Source of the DNA: Escherichia coli | GTDB taxonomy: Bacteria > Pseudomonadota > Gammaproteobacteria > Enterobacterales > Enterobacteriaceae | Length of the DNA: 64,000 nt | Assembly (NCBI RefSeq): GCF_050920415.1 | Contig: NZ_CP169309.1 | Reading direction: 5' to 3' (one strand) | In this document: positions 4,911 through 52,445 of the stretch, in pieces | Layout of the letters: each line of letters starts with the position of its first letter | How positions within the stretch are numbered: position 1 is the first letter of the stretch | Notes under the pieces: generated by a model | The model's input: only the letters and a program-made list of their open reading frames with translations | The model's database searches: none | What the model was told of the DNA's origin: nothing | Program-made: the position numbers and the translations under genes

Positions 4911-5980
4911 GCCAAATCCTCATTGTTAAATGTCGGGTCGTTCGCCTGTGGAGCGTCTATCACCTCGGTAACCAGCGTATCGTTGGCGACGGGTGCAGGC
5001 GGAATAACGATCGACTCCGGCGTCACCACCGGCACCAGATGGCGGCTCAGCGGCGCTTTTTCAGTCAATAACTTACCGACCGTTGCCAGAAAATAACGCC
5101 CGCATAAACGCCCAAGTTTATAGTCTTCACGCAGCGCCGGAATCCGACTGCCGAGCGCGATACTATGTAATGGCTTCGGCGGATAAATTTCGAATATCCT
5201 CAACTGGCCCGGTGGTTTCTCAATAAATTGCTGAATCTCACGATAGCTGGTTTCATGATGCTGCACCAGATTGACCAGCGGCTGCAGGCTACTGTCACCC
5301 AGCCAGCGTTCCATGCGTTTGAACCACTGCGGCGTATAGTACATTTGTGACGGCACAGTGCGGATAACGACCAACGTTTTTGCGCCCTGCCTTGCCGCCT
5401 CTTTAACCGGGATCGCATCACTGATCCCGCCATCCAGGTAATTAATGCCTTCCAGCGACACTCCGCTACGATAAAAGCCAGGTATTGCACTGGAGGCGCG
5501 AATCACATCCAGCCAGTTTTGTTTGGTTGGTAAAAAGTAATTCGGCGCGTAGTCATCCTGACGACAGGCGCACATATAAAACGATTTGCCGCTGTCAAAT
5601 AGCCGCGCTGCGGTGTCCATTTGCAACGGCATCTGGCTTGCGGTGGCCTCCACCAGCCAGTCGAGATCGATAAGATTTCCTCCACGGACAAAGCGCAATG
5701 GATCGAAAAATTCGCGTTTTGTGGTATAGCGCATGATGACTTTGCGCGCGTAACCGGGCTGATTGCAGATATACGCCGAGAGGTTCTGCGCCCCGGCAGA
5801 TGTGCCGAGATAAAGATCGAAAGGATTAAACTGCGCGCGCATAAACTCATCCAGCACGCCAGCTGTGAAAATTCCACGCTGCCCGCCGCCTTCGCACACC
5901 AGAGCTATTCGTCCAGGCTGGAACGGCCTTAGCGACAACGGCGCAATATTACCAAGCGTTACAGGTATTCGCTGCCCCAC
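4907..5980 (-). CDS. yjjU: patatin-like phospholipase
   Basis: 357 aa from GTG 5980 (MGQRIPVTLGNIAP...), with GGGQRG, GTSAG (GxSxG) and DGG motifs. The stop overlaps the yjjV start. Confidence 0.85.
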   Translation of the reverse strand: MGQRIPVTLGNIAPLSLRPFQPGRIALVCEGGGQRGIFTAGVLDEFMRAQFNPFDLYLGTSAGAQNLSAYICNQPGYARKVIMRYTTKREFFDPLRFVRGGNLIDLDWLVEATASQMPLQMDTAARLFDSGKSFYMCACRQDDYAPNYFLPTKQNWLDVIRASSAIPGFYRSGVSLEGINYLDGGISDAIPVKEAARQGAKTLVVIRTVPSQMYYTPQWFKRMERWLGDSSLQPLVNLVQHHETSYREIQQFIEKPPGQLRIFEIYPPKPLHSIALGSRIPALREDYKLGRLCGRYFLATVGKLLTEKAPLSRHLVPVVTPESIVIPPAPVANDTLVTEVIDAPQANDPTFNNEDLA

Positions 5981-46574: not shown

Positions 46575-47722
46575 TTGCGCCCCCTTACCTCGGAAGAGTT
46601 CAGCGACGAATGAATAAGACGGGCAAGAAATGCCGCATCGTTAATTCGGTCATACAGACTTACAGCCAGCGGTGATTCAGCTTTTTCCAGCATGGGATAA
46701 AGCTGCTGCAACCAGACCTGATGAATTGATGAAATGTAGGAATAGAGTACGCTGGCGTTATGTGCAACGTCGCTCGGTACAGCGGGCTTTGAAAGCTGTT
46801 TCTCCATCTGGTTAAAGGCATTGATGTATGCCTCTTTGAACTGGGCAGCACGTTTACCCGTGAAACCCATAGCAAGAAACGCAAAACCGTCGCGGGTTAT
46901 TTGATAGCAAGGTAGTTTGCGGCCTGTGCAATCGGTGTAATCACTCACCGAAAAATTGCGGGCAGTGAATGATGCGGAGCATTCAAGCGTGCGGATCTTT
47001 TTCAGTACATCGTCATGACGTTTGGAGAAGAAGTTGGCAACAGCCAGGGATGAAGTAACAGCCTGACCATCAACGATGGCAATTTCAGGTTGAGTGAGGG
47101 TTGGGATCGTAGCCATGATGGCAGCCTCTTTGGTGATTTTTAATAACTCACCACCAAGGCTTTCCACGACCTTATTGGTGGTGAGACGTACAGGGGTGGA
47201 AATACCGGTCACCAAAGAACCCGGCCCAACCGAAGTTGGCCCTGCACGCCCCACCATAATTTGGGCGTAATGCTGCTCATGACACAAAAAAACCGCAAGA
47301 GCGCGGTTGTGCGCTTTGGTGAATTCCGGGTTTCCACGCCCGGCACCCGCTTTATAAGGTGCCTGAACAGTGTAACGTCCCGGAATGGCAGAATCAATGT
47401 GCTGGTGGTCCTTCACACTCAACAAAATCACGCCTGAATTTCCACAAAGGGCTAAAGCACTCATGCGGGTAGTCTTTGCGAAGATAGATAACGCGCTGTG
47501 TTTCTGGCTCCCAACGAATAACATGAACATAAAGTCCTCTTCCGTCACGAAACCAGCGGTTAAGTTCCTGCACAACTCGCCCCCCACAGTCAGGTAAAGT
47601 TCTCTGTGGTTACTTACAGCCAGGAGATTTGGTAATCTGCATTCATGCCGTAACAACAGGTGTTCAGCGACGCTGACCACCAGCTGTTGCGACAAATGGT
47701 TATTTGCCGTTAAACTGTTCAT
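46571..47722 (-). CDS. Rha-family phage regulatory protein with an unrecognised 193-aa N-terminal extension
   Basis: The C-terminal half from MATIPTLTQPEIAIVDGQAVTSSLAVANFFSKRHDDVLKKIRTLE... (internal ATG 47143, RBS agagg) is a typical Rha N-terminus. The same frame is open upstream to ATG 47722, which overlaps the previous stop. Confidence 0.6.
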   Translation of the reverse strand: MNSLTANNHLSQQLVVSVAEHLLLRHECRLPNLLAVSNHRELYLTVGGELCRNLTAGFVTEEDFMFMLFVGSQKHSALSIFAKTTRMSALALCGNSGVILLSVKDHQHIDSAIPGRYTVQAPYKAGAGRGNPEFTKAHNRALAVFLCHEQHYAQIMVGRAGPTSVGPGSLVTGISTPVRLTTNKVVESLGGELLKITKEAAIMATIPTLTQPEIAIVDGQAVTSSLAVANFFSKRHDDVLKKIRTLECSASFTARNFSVSDYTDCTGRKLPCYQITRDGFAFLAMGFTGKRAAQFKEAYINAFNQMEKQLSKPAVPSDVAHNASVLYSYISSIHQVWLQQLYPMLEKAESPLAVSLYDRINDAAFLARLIHSSLNSSEVRGRK

Positions 47723-48282
47723 GCGTTAGTTTCTCCACAGACACAAAACGCCACGACGCCCGGAGCTGCACACTCGCGGGCGTCACTCTTTTCTGGAGCG
47801 CAAAAGATTTTGTAGACCAGTGCTGCATGCTCCTGGAGCTTCGAAATTGACAGATACAACTCATCATTAATTGCTGTCTGCTCGTGTGGCTCCACTACCC
47901 CATCTTCGATTGCCGAACGAATCTGCTTTGAGTAACTCCCGATCTGTTCGATGACTTCCAGCAGGCGCTGGTTTATATCGGCGTTCTCTACTTCCTCAAT
48001 TTCAGGAAGCGATACAAACACCCCACCAGCAGACTGTGCGACAGCATCCGCAATGTAGTGAGTGCCAGCCGCGCGCTGTAAAATCATTGCCCATCCCAGC
48101 GGGAAAATCTGATCGCCATCTGCACGAAGGCGGTTGAATAAAGCGTTCTCTGTTACATCCAGCCACTCAGCAGCTTCAGCGTAACCCCCCGGCAACGCCG
48201 CGATAGTTTTTCTGACAGCTTTCACGTACCACTCAGGCTGTTTTTCTACTTTCCAGTGATGCTTACCCACGGTTAGCCTCAT
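47719..48282 (-). CDS. YdaT-like protein (cII functional-analogue position)
   Basis: 187 aa, second gene of the early-right operon after cro (MRLTVGKHHWKVEKQPEWYVKAVRKTIAALPGGYAEAAEWLDVTENALFNRL...). Confidence 0.55.
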   Translation of the reverse strand: MRLTVGKHHWKVEKQPEWYVKAVRKTIAALPGGYAEAAEWLDVTENALFNRLRADGDQIFPLGWAMILQRAAGTHYIADAVAQSAGGVFVSLPEIEEVENADINQRLLEVIEQIGSYSKQIRSAIEDGVVEPHEQTAINDELYLSISKLQEHAALVYKIFCAPEKSDARECAAPGVVAFCVCGETNA

Positions 48283-48313
48283 CGTTCTGTGGTTAAAAAT
48301 TAAAGGTGTTCTG

Positions 48314-48514
48314 TTAATCTTTCGGATAGATATCCGGTCTTAAGTCAGATTTCGTAATTGCACCTGACGTGCATTGCTCAAGTTTTTTAGCCAGCACAAA
48401 ACTGGCTTTTTTATAACCATTGAAAACCAGCCGTAAGTAGCCTGGTGTTGAGCCAACTTTTCCGGCCAACTCGCCCTGCTGTTCTTTGGTTAAAGAGTCC
48501 CAATACGCTTTCAT
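48314..48514 (-). CDS. cro: Cro-like repressor (YdaS/HTH)
   Basis: 66 aa from ATG 48514: MKAYWDSLTKEQQGELAGKVGSTPGYLRLVFNGYKKASFVLAKKLEQCTSGAITKSDL... It is divergent from cI. The longer ORF-track call overlaps cI. Confidence 0.75.
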   Translation of the reverse strand: MKAYWDSLTKEQQGELAGKVGSTPGYLRLVFNGYKKASFVLAKKLEQCTSGAITKSDLRPDIYPKD

Positions 48515-48519
48515 ACAAT

Positions 48520-48598
48520 ATGTACCTCTTATATACATATTACATGATTGAAATGAACCTTCAAGATACTTGTACCCTATCGGTACAAAGGTTTTAAT
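48520..48598. promoter_or_regulatory. OR region: operators plus divergent PR / PRM
   Basis: Operators are atgtacctcttatatacat (48520-48538) and ttgtaccctatcggtacaa (48570-48588). PR (minus strand): TTGAAG (48564-48559), 16 nt, TAATAT (48542-48537). PRM (plus strand): TTGTAC (48570-48575), 17 nt, TTTAAT (48593-48598), with the cI ATG at 48605. Confidence 0.55.
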
Positions 48599-48604
48599 TT
48601 CGTT

Positions 48605-49279
48605 ATGAAAACAGTCCATGACATCCGGCGGTCTAACGCCAGAAAACTGAGAGATGGTGTTGGCGGGAATTCTTCCTTTGCCACCATGATTGATCGCGAA
48701 CCAACCCAGACCAGCAGGTTTATGGGAGATGGTGCTACTAAAAATATCGGTGACAGCATGGCACGGCACATCGAAAAATGTTTCGACCTGCCTGTCGGAT
48801 GGCTTGATCAAGAACACCAGACAACGAACATCACAAAAAAACCTGATGTTTCAATCACTAATAAACAAATAACGTTAGTCCCTGTCATATCATGGGTACA
48901 GGCCGGAGCATGGAAAGAAGTTGGCTATTCTGAGGTTGATTTGAGCACAACAGAAACATATCCCTGCCCTGTACCCTGTGGCGAAATGACTTATATATTG
49001 AGGGTGATTGGTGATTCAATGATTGATGAGTACCGTCCGGGGGACATGATTTTTGTCGATCCAGAAGTACCAGCCTGCCACGGCGATGACGTTATTGCAT
49101 TGATGCACGATACAGGTGAAACCACCTTCAAAAGGTTGATAGAAGACGGGACACAGCGTTATCTCAAAGCATTAAACCCCAACTGGCCTGAGCCTTACAT
49201 TAAGATAAACGGTAATTGCTCTATCATTGGTACAGTTATTTTCTCAGGAAAACCAAGAAGATACAAAATTAAAGCCTGA
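48605..49279 (+). CDS. cI: CI-type repressor (HTH + S24 LexA-like autopeptidase)
   Basis: 224 aa with an N-terminal HTH. The C-terminal S24 domain has an AG site (WVQAGAW), a GDSM Ser and TFKRL Lys. Confidence 0.85.
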   Translation: MKTVHDIRRSNARKLRDGVGGNSSFATMIDREPTQTSRFMGDGATKNIGDSMARHIEKCFDLPVGWLDQEHQTTNITKKPDVSITNKQITLVPVISWVQAGAWKEVGYSEVDLSTTETYPCPVPCGEMTYILRVIGDSMIDEYRPGDMIFVDPEVPACHGDDVIALMHDTGETTFKRLIEDGTQRYLKALNPNWPEPYIKINGNCSIIGTVIFSGKPRRYKIKA

Positions 49280-49291
49280 TCAATGTCTATG

Positions 49292-49315
49292 AACCTGCTT
49301 CGGCAGGTTTTTTTA
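49292..49315 (+). terminator. intrinsic terminator after cI
   Basis: aacctgc/gcaggtt stem with a ttcg loop, then a T-run. Confidence 0.75.
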
Positions 49316-49318
49316 TAC

Positions 49319-49363
49319 TTGACAATGTACCATTAAGATACATAATGTACCTGCATAAGATAT
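49319..49363 (+). promoter_or_regulatory. PL with two operators
   Basis: TTGACA (49319-49324), 16 nt, CATAAT (49341-49346). Operators atgtaccattaagatacat (49325-49343) and atgtacctgcataagatat (49345-49363) share the ATGTACC half-site with OR. Confidence 0.6.
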
Positions 49364-49428
49364 CGAACAGGCAGGACGCCCACGAAGTAGCCGTCCGGGG
49401 CATACGAAGACCGGAATGGTTCGTAAAT

Positions 49429-49451
49429 AAAAAAGCGCCCAAGTGGACGCT
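49429..49451 (-). terminator. intrinsic terminator of the antisense moron
   Basis: On the minus strand: agcgtcc/gggcgct stem with an actt loop, then T6. Confidence 0.7.
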
Positions 49452-49474
49452 TCACTTTTGAACTGGATTTATAA

Positions 49475-49684
49475 TCAATTATTTTCTTCATAAATGTTTT
49501 GTAATGTATTTATGAGATTTGGTATTTCTTTTATGGGAAAAGAATATATTGGACTTTCGATAATTTTATCAGATTCAAATGGTGGTTGTTTGCAGGACAG
49601 TTGAACTATAACTGAATTATGATCTTTAACTGGCACACAGTACCAACCACATACATCAAAAACAGGAGTATTTTGATTATCCAT
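49475..49684 (-). CDS. hypothetical 69-aa protein, AT-rich moron antisense to the PL transcript
   Basis: ATG 49684 with RBS gagga: MDNQNTPVFDVCGWYCVPVKDHNSVIVQLSCKQPPFESDKIIESPIYSFPIKEIPNLINTLQNIYEENN. It has its own terminator. No family recognised. Confidence 0.55.
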   Translation of the reverse strand: MDNQNTPVFDVCGWYCVPVKDHNSVIVQLSCKQPPFESDKIIESPIYSFPIKEIPNLINTLQNIYEENN

Positions 49685-49980
49685 TATGTCCTCGACAACT
49701 AAAAACACTGCGTACAAACCTCAAAAGCAGGGAGTTATTTATAAAATTTCATAAAGAATAATTACTGATAGCGACAATTCATTGTTCTTGAATTTTGAAA
49801 AATAGCAAGACAAAACAATGTAAACTTATTTAAGAAAAGTTCTTATTATGTAAACAAAACAACCAATTCGTTATATAGGAAAAACAAATAGTACGCAAGA
49901 AAATATTCAACAGGGGTATTACATTCAACCATAAGAGTAATCGTCTCTTTGGTAACTAATACCGAACATTTTATTGTAAC

Positions 49981-50528
49981 ACGTCGTATGGCACATGCGT
50001 CGTTAGCGGTCTGGGGACGTTAAAGGGGACAATCCACTCCTTGCTCGGGCAAACAAACCAGGTAGCCGGAATGTGCAAGTCAATGATGATGCTGATAAGA
50101 CGCCTAACCAGCGTGGCGATCCGGTTTGACGCCTGGGAAGAGACCAGGGTGCAACGATGAGGGCATTTATGGAGCCGCGACAAAGTGTGGTGCCATAACT
50201 GGCTAAGTGCTCTCAGCGTTGTGGTAATCCGCGAAATGGCGCGGCGGTAAGTATGGCGGGGTTACTCTTTCCCCGTTGAGGACACCGGATTGTCAGGTTG
50301 ACCATACGCCTGAGTGACAACCCCACCACAACAGCCACTGCTTTGGCGGTACCAGCTTGTACCCTTGCTTCCGGCTGGTACCGTCCTTTTTACAAAACAG
50401 AGAAGAGCATCACCGGACGACGGGCTCATAACCCAATCCATCCGGGCGGCTGCCACCGCAGGTGTTCTTCTCTGTTTTGTGGAGAAACCAACCGGCCTTG
50501 CAGGGTCGATATGATGAGGAGCAGCAAA
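49981..50528 (+). ncRNA. candidate structured leader / cis-acting RNA of the early-left operon
   Basis: No credible ORF on either strand. Long helices are visible by eye: 50392-50409 with 50463-50480, 50345-50356 with 50374-50385, and several 5-bp GC hairpins. It lies between PL and the first RBS-bearing gene. Confidence 0.3.
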
Positions 50529-50891
50529 ATGGCTAGCGAACGCAGTACTGATGTGCAGGCATTTATCGGGGAGCTGGACGGCGGCGTATTTGAAACCAAA
50601 ATCGGCGCAGTTCTCAGTGAAGTCGCTTCCGGTGTGATGAACACGAAAACCAAAGGTAAGGTCTCACTCAACCTGGAAATCGAACCATTTGATGAGAACC
50701 GTGTGAAAATCAAACACAAACTCTCATATGTTCGCCCGACTAACCGCGGGAAAATTTCCGAAGAAGACACCACCGAAACGCCGATGTATGTCAATCGCGG
50801 TGGTCGCCTGACTATTCTGCAGGAAGACCAGGGACAATTACTGACTCTTGCCGGTGAACCTGACGGAAAACTCCGCGCAGCAGGTCATTAA
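50529..50891 (+). CDS. YfdP-like protein
   Basis: 120 aa from ATG 50529 (RBS gaggag): MASERSTDVQAFIGELDGGVFETKIGAVLSEVASGVMNTKTKGKVSLNLEIEPFDENRVKIKHKL... The ORF-track TTG start at 50298 is discounted. Confidence 0.7.
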   Translation: MASERSTDVQAFIGELDGGVFETKIGAVLSEVASGVMNTKTKGKVSLNLEIEPFDENRVKIKHKLSYVRPTNRGKISEEDTTETPMYVNRGGRLTILQEDQGQLLTLAGEPDGKLRAAGH

Positions 50892-50956
50892 TATCGTTCT
50901 TAATTAACTGATTATTTATCTCATCACTGAATATCTTTATATAGTGAGGACTTATT

Positions 50957-51781
50957 ATGTCTCAGAACTTAGACGCAACCGCAATTAATCAAATCCATGC
51001 CCTTATTTCTGCTCAGGGTGTTAATGAAATTATCAGTAAGATTGGTGCCGATGCTGTGGCATTGCCTGAGAATTTCCGCATTCATGATCTGGAAAAATTT
51101 AATTTAAATCGCTTCCGTTTCCGTGGTGCGCTTTCCACTGCCAGCATCGATGACTTTACCCGTTATTCTAAAGATCTTGCAGATGAAGGCACCCGCTGCT
51201 TTATCGATGCTGATAATATGCGTGCCGTCAGTGTGCTTAACCTGGGTACTATTGATGAACCAGGTCACGCAGATAACACCGCCACTCTCAAACTGAAAAA
51301 GACAGCACCGTTCTCTGCCCTGTTGTATGTTAACGGCGAGCGTAACTCCCAGAAGTCACTGGCAGAATGGATTGAAGACTGGGCCGACTATCTTGTGGGC
51401 TTTGATGCTAATGGTGACACCATTCAGGCAACAAAAGCGGCTGCGGCGGTCCGTAAAATCACGATTGAAGCAAACCAGACCGCTGATTTTGAAGATAATG
51501 ACTTCAGCGGCAAACGCTCCCTGATGGAGTCTGTCGAAGCGAAGACCAAAGACATTATGCCAGTGGCATTTGAATTTAAATGCGTTCCGTTTGAAGGTCT
51601 GAAAGAACGTCCGTTTAAATTACGCCTCAGCATTATCACTGGCGATCGTCCTGTACTGGTTCTGCGCATTATTCAGCTGGAAGCGGTGCAGGAAGATATG
51701 GCTAACGAATTTCGTGATCTGCTTGTTGAGAAATTCAAGGACAGCAAAGTAGAAACCTTTATTGGTACTTTCACCGCCTGA
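50957..51781 (+). CDS. YfdQ-like protein (DUF2303)
   Basis: 274 aa, with the same order and size as CPS-53 yfdQ (from memory). Confidence 0.65.
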
Positions 51782-51908
51782 TTTCATTACTGCAAATGCC
51801 CCTGCGGGGGCATTTATGGAAACGTAATTTACTCAATAATCGCCGGATGGTGAGGGATTCTTTTTACCAGAATTCAGCGCGGTGCAGCGCATATACGTGG
51901 AGAACAAA

Positions 51909-52445
51909 ATGTCATTTATCAAAACTTTTTCTGGGAAGCATTTTTATTATGACAGGATAAATAAAGACGACATCGATATTAACGATATCGCGGTTTCCCT
52001 TTCAAATATCTGTCGCTTTGCCGGTCATCTTTCGCACTTCTACAGCGTCGCCCAACATGCGGTTCTTTGCAGCCAGCTGGTGCCGCAGGAATTTGCTTTT
52101 GAAGCGTTAATGCATGATGCAACAGAAGCGTATTGCCAGGACATTCCCGCACCACTGAAACGCCTTCTTCCTGACTATAAACGGATGGAAGAAAAAATAG
52201 ACGCCGTAATCCGTGAGAAATACGGGTTACCCCCGGTTATGAGTACACCCGTGAAATATGCCGATCTCATCATGCTGGCAACCGAACGCCGCGATCTCGG
52301 GCTTGATGATGGCTCTTTCTGGCCTGTACTGGAAGGCATCCCGGCAACAGAGATGTTCAACGTGATTCCACTGGCACCGGGCCATGCCTACGGGATGTTT
52401 ATGGAACGTTTTAACGATTTATCGGAGTTACGCAAATGCGCATGA
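51909..52445 (+). CDS. HD-domain phosphohydrolase (YfdR-like 5'-nucleotidase)
   Basis: 178 aa from ATG 51909 (RBS ggagaa), with HD-domain residues ...RFAGH...VAQH...LMHDATEAY... Confidence 0.7.
   Translation: MSFIKTFSGKHFYYDRINKDDIDINDIAVSLSNICRFAGHLSHFYSVAQHAVLCSQLVPQEFAFEALMHDATEAYCQDIPAPLKRLLPDYKRMEEKIDAVIREKYGLPPVMSTPVKYADLIMLATERRDLGLDDGSFWPVLEGIPATEMFNVIPLAPGHAYGMFMERFNDLSELRKCA

Follow-up and report, generated by a model that had tools for sequence, protein, structure and literature searches.

Within a 64,000-nt stretch of Escherichia coli DNA (RefSeq assembly GCF_050920415.1, contig NZ_CP169309.1; hereafter the window), the leader of the early-left promoter PL of a lambdoid prophage carries a small minus-strand gene encoding a 69-amino-acid (aa) protein (49475..49684, ATG start, stop codon included in the span), which is very probably a divergent member of the BssS superfamily. 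The gene is adjacent to the phage repressor: it is antisense to PL and convergent with cI, and its stop codon lies 195 bp past that of cI, with PL between them. The explanation that best accounts for the whole, and that we hold slightly better than even, is that the unit is a moron expressed in the lysogen, a BssS-superfamily conversion gene acting on host physiology. An initial annotation of this region, made from the letters alone, is largely right in its observations, and its interpretation needs changing.

The open reading frame (ORF) is almost certainly a real moron gene. An identical protein (WP_021559686.1) is called by the NCBI annotation pipeline PGAP at the equivalent position in E. 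coli RefSeq genomes. A Shine-Dalgarno sequence, GAGGA (49689..49693, minus strand), lies 4 nt 5′ of the ATG and is invariant in four variants, which bears out the good ribosome-binding site (RBS) described in the initial annotation. The strong minus-strand terminator noted there is likewise upheld: a Rho-independent terminator at 49432..49453 (minus strand, read 49453–49432) forms a 9-pair stem (5 of the pairs G-C) ahead of TTTTTATTT, and folds at −16.2 kcal/mol (z = −3.3), a value that 0/200 shuffled sequences equal. The GC fraction is 0.24–0.37 across 49425–49950 versus 0.46–0.58 in the flanks.

Comparison with related phages supports the initial reading of the unit as a moron inside the PL leader that runs opposite to PL. 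Homology to phage cdtI covers 48500–49352 (95% identical) and resumes at 49965 (98%), with nothing of 49353–49964 in between; the alignment therefore shows that stretch to have been inserted into the PL leader of a lambdoid prophage of the SfV/cdtI/e14 type. Sequence shared with SfV extends as far as 49424, after which SfV carries a different, plus-strand gene, and sequence shared with PhiR29_1, SfIV and Kati runs through the moron terminator, which is common to all three. Behind this same terminator, PhiR29_1 replaces the 69-aa gene with a gene for a 242-aa phrog_1244 protein (L011 2629–3357, minus strand), a family of unassigned function; this protein has weak coiled-coil-like matches and no PADLOC match. 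Different cargo behind a common terminator indicates a variable accessory slot in which the terminator is the common junction. Like classical morons (HK97 gp15, lambda bor and lom), the unit is missing from a close relative, deviates in composition, has its own terminator and belongs to a site of variable cargo; unlike them, it lies in the early-left leader rather than the late region, runs antisense to PL, and has a promoter that is only a candidate. The moron architecture is otherwise ordinary; what is new is its cargo, a tail-less BssS-family variant.

The initial annotation held that the protein matches nothing recognizable, and most direct searches return little. The window protein has 0 matches at E ≤ 1 to the 5,027 PADLOC models, nothing significant in PHROGs (best phrog_10846, marginal at E = 0.31), and only a spurious match to a BRCA1 helix in a PDB sequence search (E = 0.05); a word-indexed protein search recovers only four close E. 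coli clusters. The claim is nonetheless wrong. An exhaustive HMMER search of 1.84 billion representatives identified P0006, an 85-aa protein that is 35% identical over its full length (E = 9e-5; 5e-14 by pairwise BLASTP). Two further proteins from the representative search, P0007 and P0008, were discarded as repeat proteins with compositional matches. P0006 itself scores 31.6 bits against the Pfam BssS model (PF13991), above the 27-bit cut-off. The best PHROG, in the same register, is phrog_10846 for P0006 (2e-9), BssS of E. coli K-12 (5e-5), P0002, a close relative of the window protein (0.04), and the window protein (0.31). We also built a custom hidden Markov model (HMM) from 32 canonical BssS sequences, P0006 and gp37 of Salmonella phage F1055, leaving the window subfamily out; it scores the window protein at 24.3 bits (E = 1.6e-9 in that comparison), aligning residues 3–63 with positions 6–67 of 85, and the relatives at 29–32 bits. 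The intermediate P0006, the custom HMM and the shared PHROG together therefore place the protein, very probably, in a divergent subfamily of the BssS superfamily that lies outside the Pfam family as defined.

Several results weigh against this assignment or against what might be drawn from it. The window protein has nothing significant in Pfam and no PF13991 match at E ≤ 1, or even at E ≤ 10, and P0002 has no PF13991 match at E ≤ 10 either (gathering threshold, 27 bits). Set directly against canonical BssS by profile-profile comparison (hhalign), the small family of the window protein gives a weak match (E = 0.039), or E = 1.9e-4 with the intermediate included. The protein ends in ..IYEENN, about 15 residues short, and the conserved tail ..(G/S)D....H is missing; without that tail the protein may share no activity with BssS. 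The E. coli K-12 protein BssS (YceP) has 84 residues including the tail (..SGD....H), whereas the window protein has 69 without it, is 14–24% identical to canonical BssS and falls below the Pfam threshold. What the two share is a small soluble protein with the motif register xVFxVxGW, a beta-hairpin, a PP/P turn and a C-terminal helix with I..L. The window gene differs further in being prophage- or plasmid-borne and AT-rich, and in having a BssS-like function that is only predicted.

A predicted model (predicted local distance difference test, pLDDT, 82) has four beta-strands followed by a long helix and resembles COMM dimerization domains, including the bacterial COMMD-like protein 9q6a; the alignment behind this deeper model included BssS sequences, which tempers it as independent support for the family assignment. 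An independent model from a shallow alignment matches PUR, PC4 and COMM folds and gives a weak match to a viral ‘BssS family’ model (template modeling score 0.60, E = 0.37). COMM domains act through tight dimerization. The 69-aa protein reads as cytoplasmic, and its sequence shows neither membrane segment nor signal peptide nor catalytic motif. The COMM-like fold makes protein-protein binding, rather than catalysis, the most likely mode of action, and we infer that the protein would act by binding a partner.

BssS-family genes recur in this slot. On its contig, P0006 is convergent with a cI-like repressor gene, with cro beyond. Gp37 of Salmonella phage F1055, which scores 61.9 bits against Pfam BssS, is encoded antisense between PL with its leader RNA element el60 (described below) and the early-left genes. 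Among 22 viral contigs with F1055-type genes (59–100% identity), a convergent cI-like gene lies 0.3–2 kb downstream in 19; in most of them cro lies beyond the cI-like gene, and yfdP/yfdQ lie upstream on the opposite strand. The contigs span at least three immunity types, and some of their repressors are 85–87% identical to that of the window. The GTDB species representatives contain one F1055-type locus only (Acerihabitans), in the same arrangement. On this recurrence, the window gene is a shorter form of a gene type fixed in place and orientation in this phage group. The phage BssS-family proteins (phrog_10846; F1055 gp37 and IMG/VR relatives) share with the window protein the best PHROG, the slot and the orientation, but they are full length (83 aa), pass the Pfam model at 62 bits and are about 30–35% identical to it. 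Their upstream regions differ as well, being GC-normal with a conserved covarying hairpin and TGGTATCCT, where the window has an AT-rich spacer.

That hairpin lies about 40–90 nt upstream of F1055-type bssS-like genes (L016 2890–2960; L030–L047) and shows compensatory changes (GCCTG...CAGGC versus GCCGG...CCGGC); it is followed by an extended −10-like sequence, TGGTATCCT or TGGTATCTT. The window gene has no such hairpin-and-−10 motif. In K-12, TGGTATACT is found about 75 nt upstream of the bssS start. F1055 and several IMG/VR relatives carry, as the gene that comes first behind PL and el60, gp38 (L016 3328–3513, minus strand), whose 61-aa product contains a ClpX-type C4 zinc finger (Pfam, 40 bits); it is absent from the window. 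Lambda N occupies the equivalent position.

The 69-aa gene is rare and conserved. A conservation and synteny search, as the initial annotation had suggested for this ORF, finds the full 511-bp cassette in 29 of 5,426 complete E. coli genomes and on 11 prophage contigs of IMG/VR, each time at this one site. The window subfamily is represented by none of the GTDB species representatives (one genome per species, 185,579 species), and the protein has no tblastn match in 50,697 phage records. A second lineage, with about 80% DNA identity, is found in insertion sequence (IS)-rich islands and on IncF plasmids next to a two-partner-secretion locus (L004, L005 and L006, each 5005–5214, minus strand, and also L007; 71–78% aa identity), and its homology to the window is limited to 49471–49696, which spans the ORF and RBS, and to the terminator, which is kept with the ORF in these divergent copies. 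Between the two lineages, the ratio of nonsynonymous to synonymous substitution rates (dN/dS) is 0.12–0.19 at a dS of about 0.9–1.0; the replacements are conservative (D/E, Y/F, I/V, K/R) and the 69-codon length is kept.

The island of the divergent copy is IS-flanked, with the gene downstream of TpsB, a 1,776-aa TpsA, a DUF2919 protein and a LuxR-type helix-turn-helix protein; the same island is present twice in strain TUM1881, on the chromosome and on a plasmid.

A version of the cassette that is 94–97% identical survives on IncFIB/FIC conjugative plasmids, inside the remnant of a decayed prophage (15 records are from Salmonella, the others from E. coli). In this remnant the holin and integrase are pseudogenes, but the 69-aa gene is intact with 2 aa changes. 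The substitution patterns and these plasmid records show the gene to be under purifying selection and to be retained on plasmids after phage decay. The remnant (L008 2315–3445; L054) lies beside the artAB toxin genes (pertussis-like ArtA plus an AB5 binding subunit), and the plasmids, of about 144 kb, are common in poultry-associated Salmonella enterica.

Such a record bears on whether the ORF has any present function. A truncated BssS pseudogene fragment, decaying in AT-rich junk, would account for a protein 15 residues shorter than BssS with the conserved tail missing, for the rarity of the subfamily (29/5,426 E. coli genomes, none of the species representatives or phage records) and for the frameshifted variants of the gene that exist (P0004, P0005, P0029). 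It is nevertheless very improbable: the 69-codon length and stop codon are kept in two lineages separated by a dS of about 1 at a dN/dS of 0.12–0.19, RBS and terminator are conserved with them, and the gene is intact while neighboring phage genes are pseudogenized.

The intact gene in a decayed remnant also argues for a benefit independent of the phage's own switch. This bears on a second alternative, which we regard as distinctly improbable, that the unit is an internal regulator of the phage, tuning its switch through convergent transcription or an antisense RNA on the PL leader, or through a protein acting on induction or on the repressor. Consistent with it are the strict conservation of position and orientation relative to cI and PL across BssS-family genes that are 30–100% identical and belong to at least three immunity types, and the terminator hairpin that stands in the path of PL transcripts right after a structured leader RNA. 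The conservation, however, is that of coding sequence (the dN/dS above) and not of an antisense overlap, the gene is intact where cI and the PL −35 element are gone (plasmid remnants, and IS-rich islands by the two-partner-secretion locus), and cdtI-type phages function without the cassette.

Retention outside the phage fits any function that benefits the host, defense included. The initial annotation had placed the unit in the slot of lambda rexAB, P22 sieB and BTP1 bstA and proposed superinfection exclusion or abortive infection, in which a small protein expressed in the lysogen protects the cell from other phages. Part of the comparison stands: like those genes, the 69-aa gene is an accessory gene beside an immunity repressor for which lysogen expression is expected, it runs antisense to the lytic operon, and its slot is variable with alternative cargo. 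Lambda rexAB and BTP1 bstA lie downstream of the repressor in the same orientation, whereas the window gene is convergent with cI and is not co-transcribed with it. Lysogens often express accessory loci of this type (PMC7067206). The proposed function itself finds no sequence support. In addition to the empty PADLOC search, there is no defense domain among Pfam and PHROG matches; the soluble 69-residue protein lacks a membrane segment or enzymatic motif, and it has no sequence or domain similarity to the much larger proteins of those systems. Moreover, its sole characterized relative, BssS, is a regulator of host physiology. Position is all that speaks for exclusion, and we consider it unlikely.

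The conversion-gene reading requires a promoter, and the presumed site is the AT-rich spacer upstream of the gene (49685..49964, minus strand), which we assessed by composition, position weight matrix (PWM) and conservation. The initial annotation's AT-rich putative promoter region (49720–49960) is AT-rich as described (GC 0.24–0.37), but no specific promoter stands out in it. A minus-strand consensus scan of 49700–49960 finds no site. The top PWM site, TTGAAT-17-TATTTT (49928–49900), scores 13.1, within the range of shuffled sequences (median maximum 11.2, 95th percentile 14.6), and its −7 T is lost in variant L009. Both results count against the conversion-gene reading. Among four natural cassette variants, the segment from about 49825 to the ATG is far more conserved than 49830–49900, and an extended −10, TGcTATTTT (49807–49799), is invariant in all four; on conservation, this is our preferred, unproven, promoter candidate. 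Another candidate, TGtTACAAT (49981–49973), was set aside, as its −10 reads TACAAC in the plasmid variant, where the gene is intact, and in cdtI.

The same spacer contains the 28-codon hydrophobic ORF of the initial annotation (49846..49932, minus strand). It exists and has a weak RBS, as described there, but it falls where the cassette varies most, and in plasmid variant L008 it has lost one nucleotide and, further on, gained one, with its frame shifted and its stop lost. Failed conservation speaks against the suggested type-I-toxin-like peptide, and on comparison of the variants we judge the ORF to be noise.

On the conversion-gene reading, cI would shut PL in the lysogen, and the minus-strand gene would be transcribed from a promoter in the AT-rich spacer, its transcript being stopped by its own terminator ahead of PL and cI. 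That the gene converges on PL and is shielded by its terminator is our ground for inferring transcription in the lysogen. Upon induction, PL transcripts would pass el60 and the terminator hairpin, which lies in their path and has a weak T-run on that strand, and would run antisense through the gene; convergent transcription from PL would thereby depress the 69-aa gene after induction. The promoter, lysogen expression and PL interference proposed in this scheme all follow from the geometry of the region.

The protein would then serve as a lysogenic-conversion factor, altering biofilm, signaling and colonization phenotypes as chromosomal BssS does. BssS has been associated with biofilm formation, indole and AI-2 traffic and gut colonization resistance (PMC3646849). 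A literature search found no paper on the molecular mechanism of BssS or on phage BssS homologues, and the query combining BssS and phage mostly returned the restriction enzyme Nb.BssSI. A host-physiology function of the 69-aa protein, reached by analogy with BssS, is tentative and somewhat short of even. A ‘BssS-like function’ is a statement at the level of phenotype only, and this weighs against the reading. With the BssS core kept and the tail lost, pairing with host BssS or with a BssS partner is an attractive possibility.

A broader and more speculative proposal, which we think quite unlikely as a whole, is that BssS is at root a phage immunity-region family. Prophages of the SfV/ST64B/F1055 group would place a homologue antisense to PL for expression in the lysogen only; the tail-less form would pair through its COMM-like interface with host BssS or its partner, mimic or antagonize it, and so rewire biofilm formation and colonization, while el60 may let PL transcripts pass the terminator. 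If this were true, it would constitute a previously undescribed regulatory module of lambdoid prophages and a first handle on how BssS works. The family merits attention in any case: BssS is a widely used biofilm marker gene, and temperate phages repeatedly carry homologues at a single, constant site of the immunity region. Conjugative plasmids of poultry-associated Salmonella and E. coli have acquired the tail-less version. Its 210-bp gene offers a concrete experimental entry point for BssS, and the finding flags prophage and plasmid carriage of a possible colonization modifier in Shiga-toxin-producing E. coli and poultry lineages.

The immunity region in which the moron lies comprises cro (ymfT-like, 48314–48517, minus strand) and a cI-type repressor gene of the YmfK/LexA family with a Peptidase_S24 domain (48605..49279, plus strand; Pfam PF00717 at 93 bits, phrog_4; RefSeq name ymfK). 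A terminator scan places an intrinsic terminator 3′ of cI (49291..49310, plus strand), where the SfV annotation also has a terminator. PL (49319..49346, plus strand) reads TTGACA-16-CATAAT, an 11/12 match to consensus, and overlaps the operator ATGTACCATTAAGATACAT (49325–49343). The 64 kb contain only two perfect copies of this 19-bp palindrome-type operator, ATGTA-N9-TACAT, one in the cro-cI intergenic region (48520) and the other inside PL (49325), against about 0.06 copies expected by chance, and PL is therefore well supported.

Directly 3′ of PL lies el60, a conserved structured RNA element of about 60 nt in the PL leader (49363..49424, plus strand), consisting of an outer stem, an invariant 5′ half and a covarying 3′ hairpin. 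We compared 13 distinct versions; the element is present in SfV, SfIV, ST64B, F1055, SEN34, mEp237, SPN3UB, ZF40 and phages of Klebsiella, Yersinia and Citrobacter. Pairing is retained in 96.4% of cells, versus 21–42% with the partners slid, and four of the five hairpin pairs show compensatory changes; the two arms of the hairpin read, in different versions, TCCGG/CCGGA, CCTGG/CCAGG, CCGGT/ACCGG, CCCCA/TGGGG and CCCGA/TCGGG. The 5′ half, CGAACAGGCAGGACGCCCACGAAGTAGCCG, is nearly invariant: over the 13 versions only two positions vary, by a single substitution each. A covariance model of the element (R1) finds a single copy in the window, and Rfam, run on 47500–52000, gives no match to it. The element may be a nut-like or antitermination leader RNA. 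We rejected a put-type antiterminator RNA like that of HK022: R1 has no match in HK022 24–36 kb, blastn finds none, and there is no second copy after PR. In the Salmonella phage ST64B, the non-coding RNA STnc1310 and two genes downstream of cI rise with the lytic genes on peroxide shock (PMC7067206). ST64B shares el60, and the element may correspond to STnc1310.

Beyond the cassette, where homology to cdtI resumes, a conserved non-coding leader of the early-left operon (49965..50528, plus strand) extends as far as yfdP. Over about 560 nt it has 54–58% GC and no intact ORF; it is 97–98% identical in cdtI and Stx2c-converting phages and recognizably conserved in F1055, ST64B and SfV, and it may be a long structured leader of that operon. 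The ORFs annotated over it elsewhere (F1055_0036, cdtI orf40 and the SfIV gp36 type) look spurious, being Cys/Arg-rich with similarity that crosses stop codons in the window, and for this reason we do not treat the BssS-superfamily gene as part of a two-gene operon. An Rfam match to STnc100 between yfdQ and yfdR (51773–51952, plus strand) is probably due to chance (20 bits against a gathering threshold of 47, E = 0.3). The early-left operon itself starts with yfdP (50529–50891), followed by yfdQ and yfdR.

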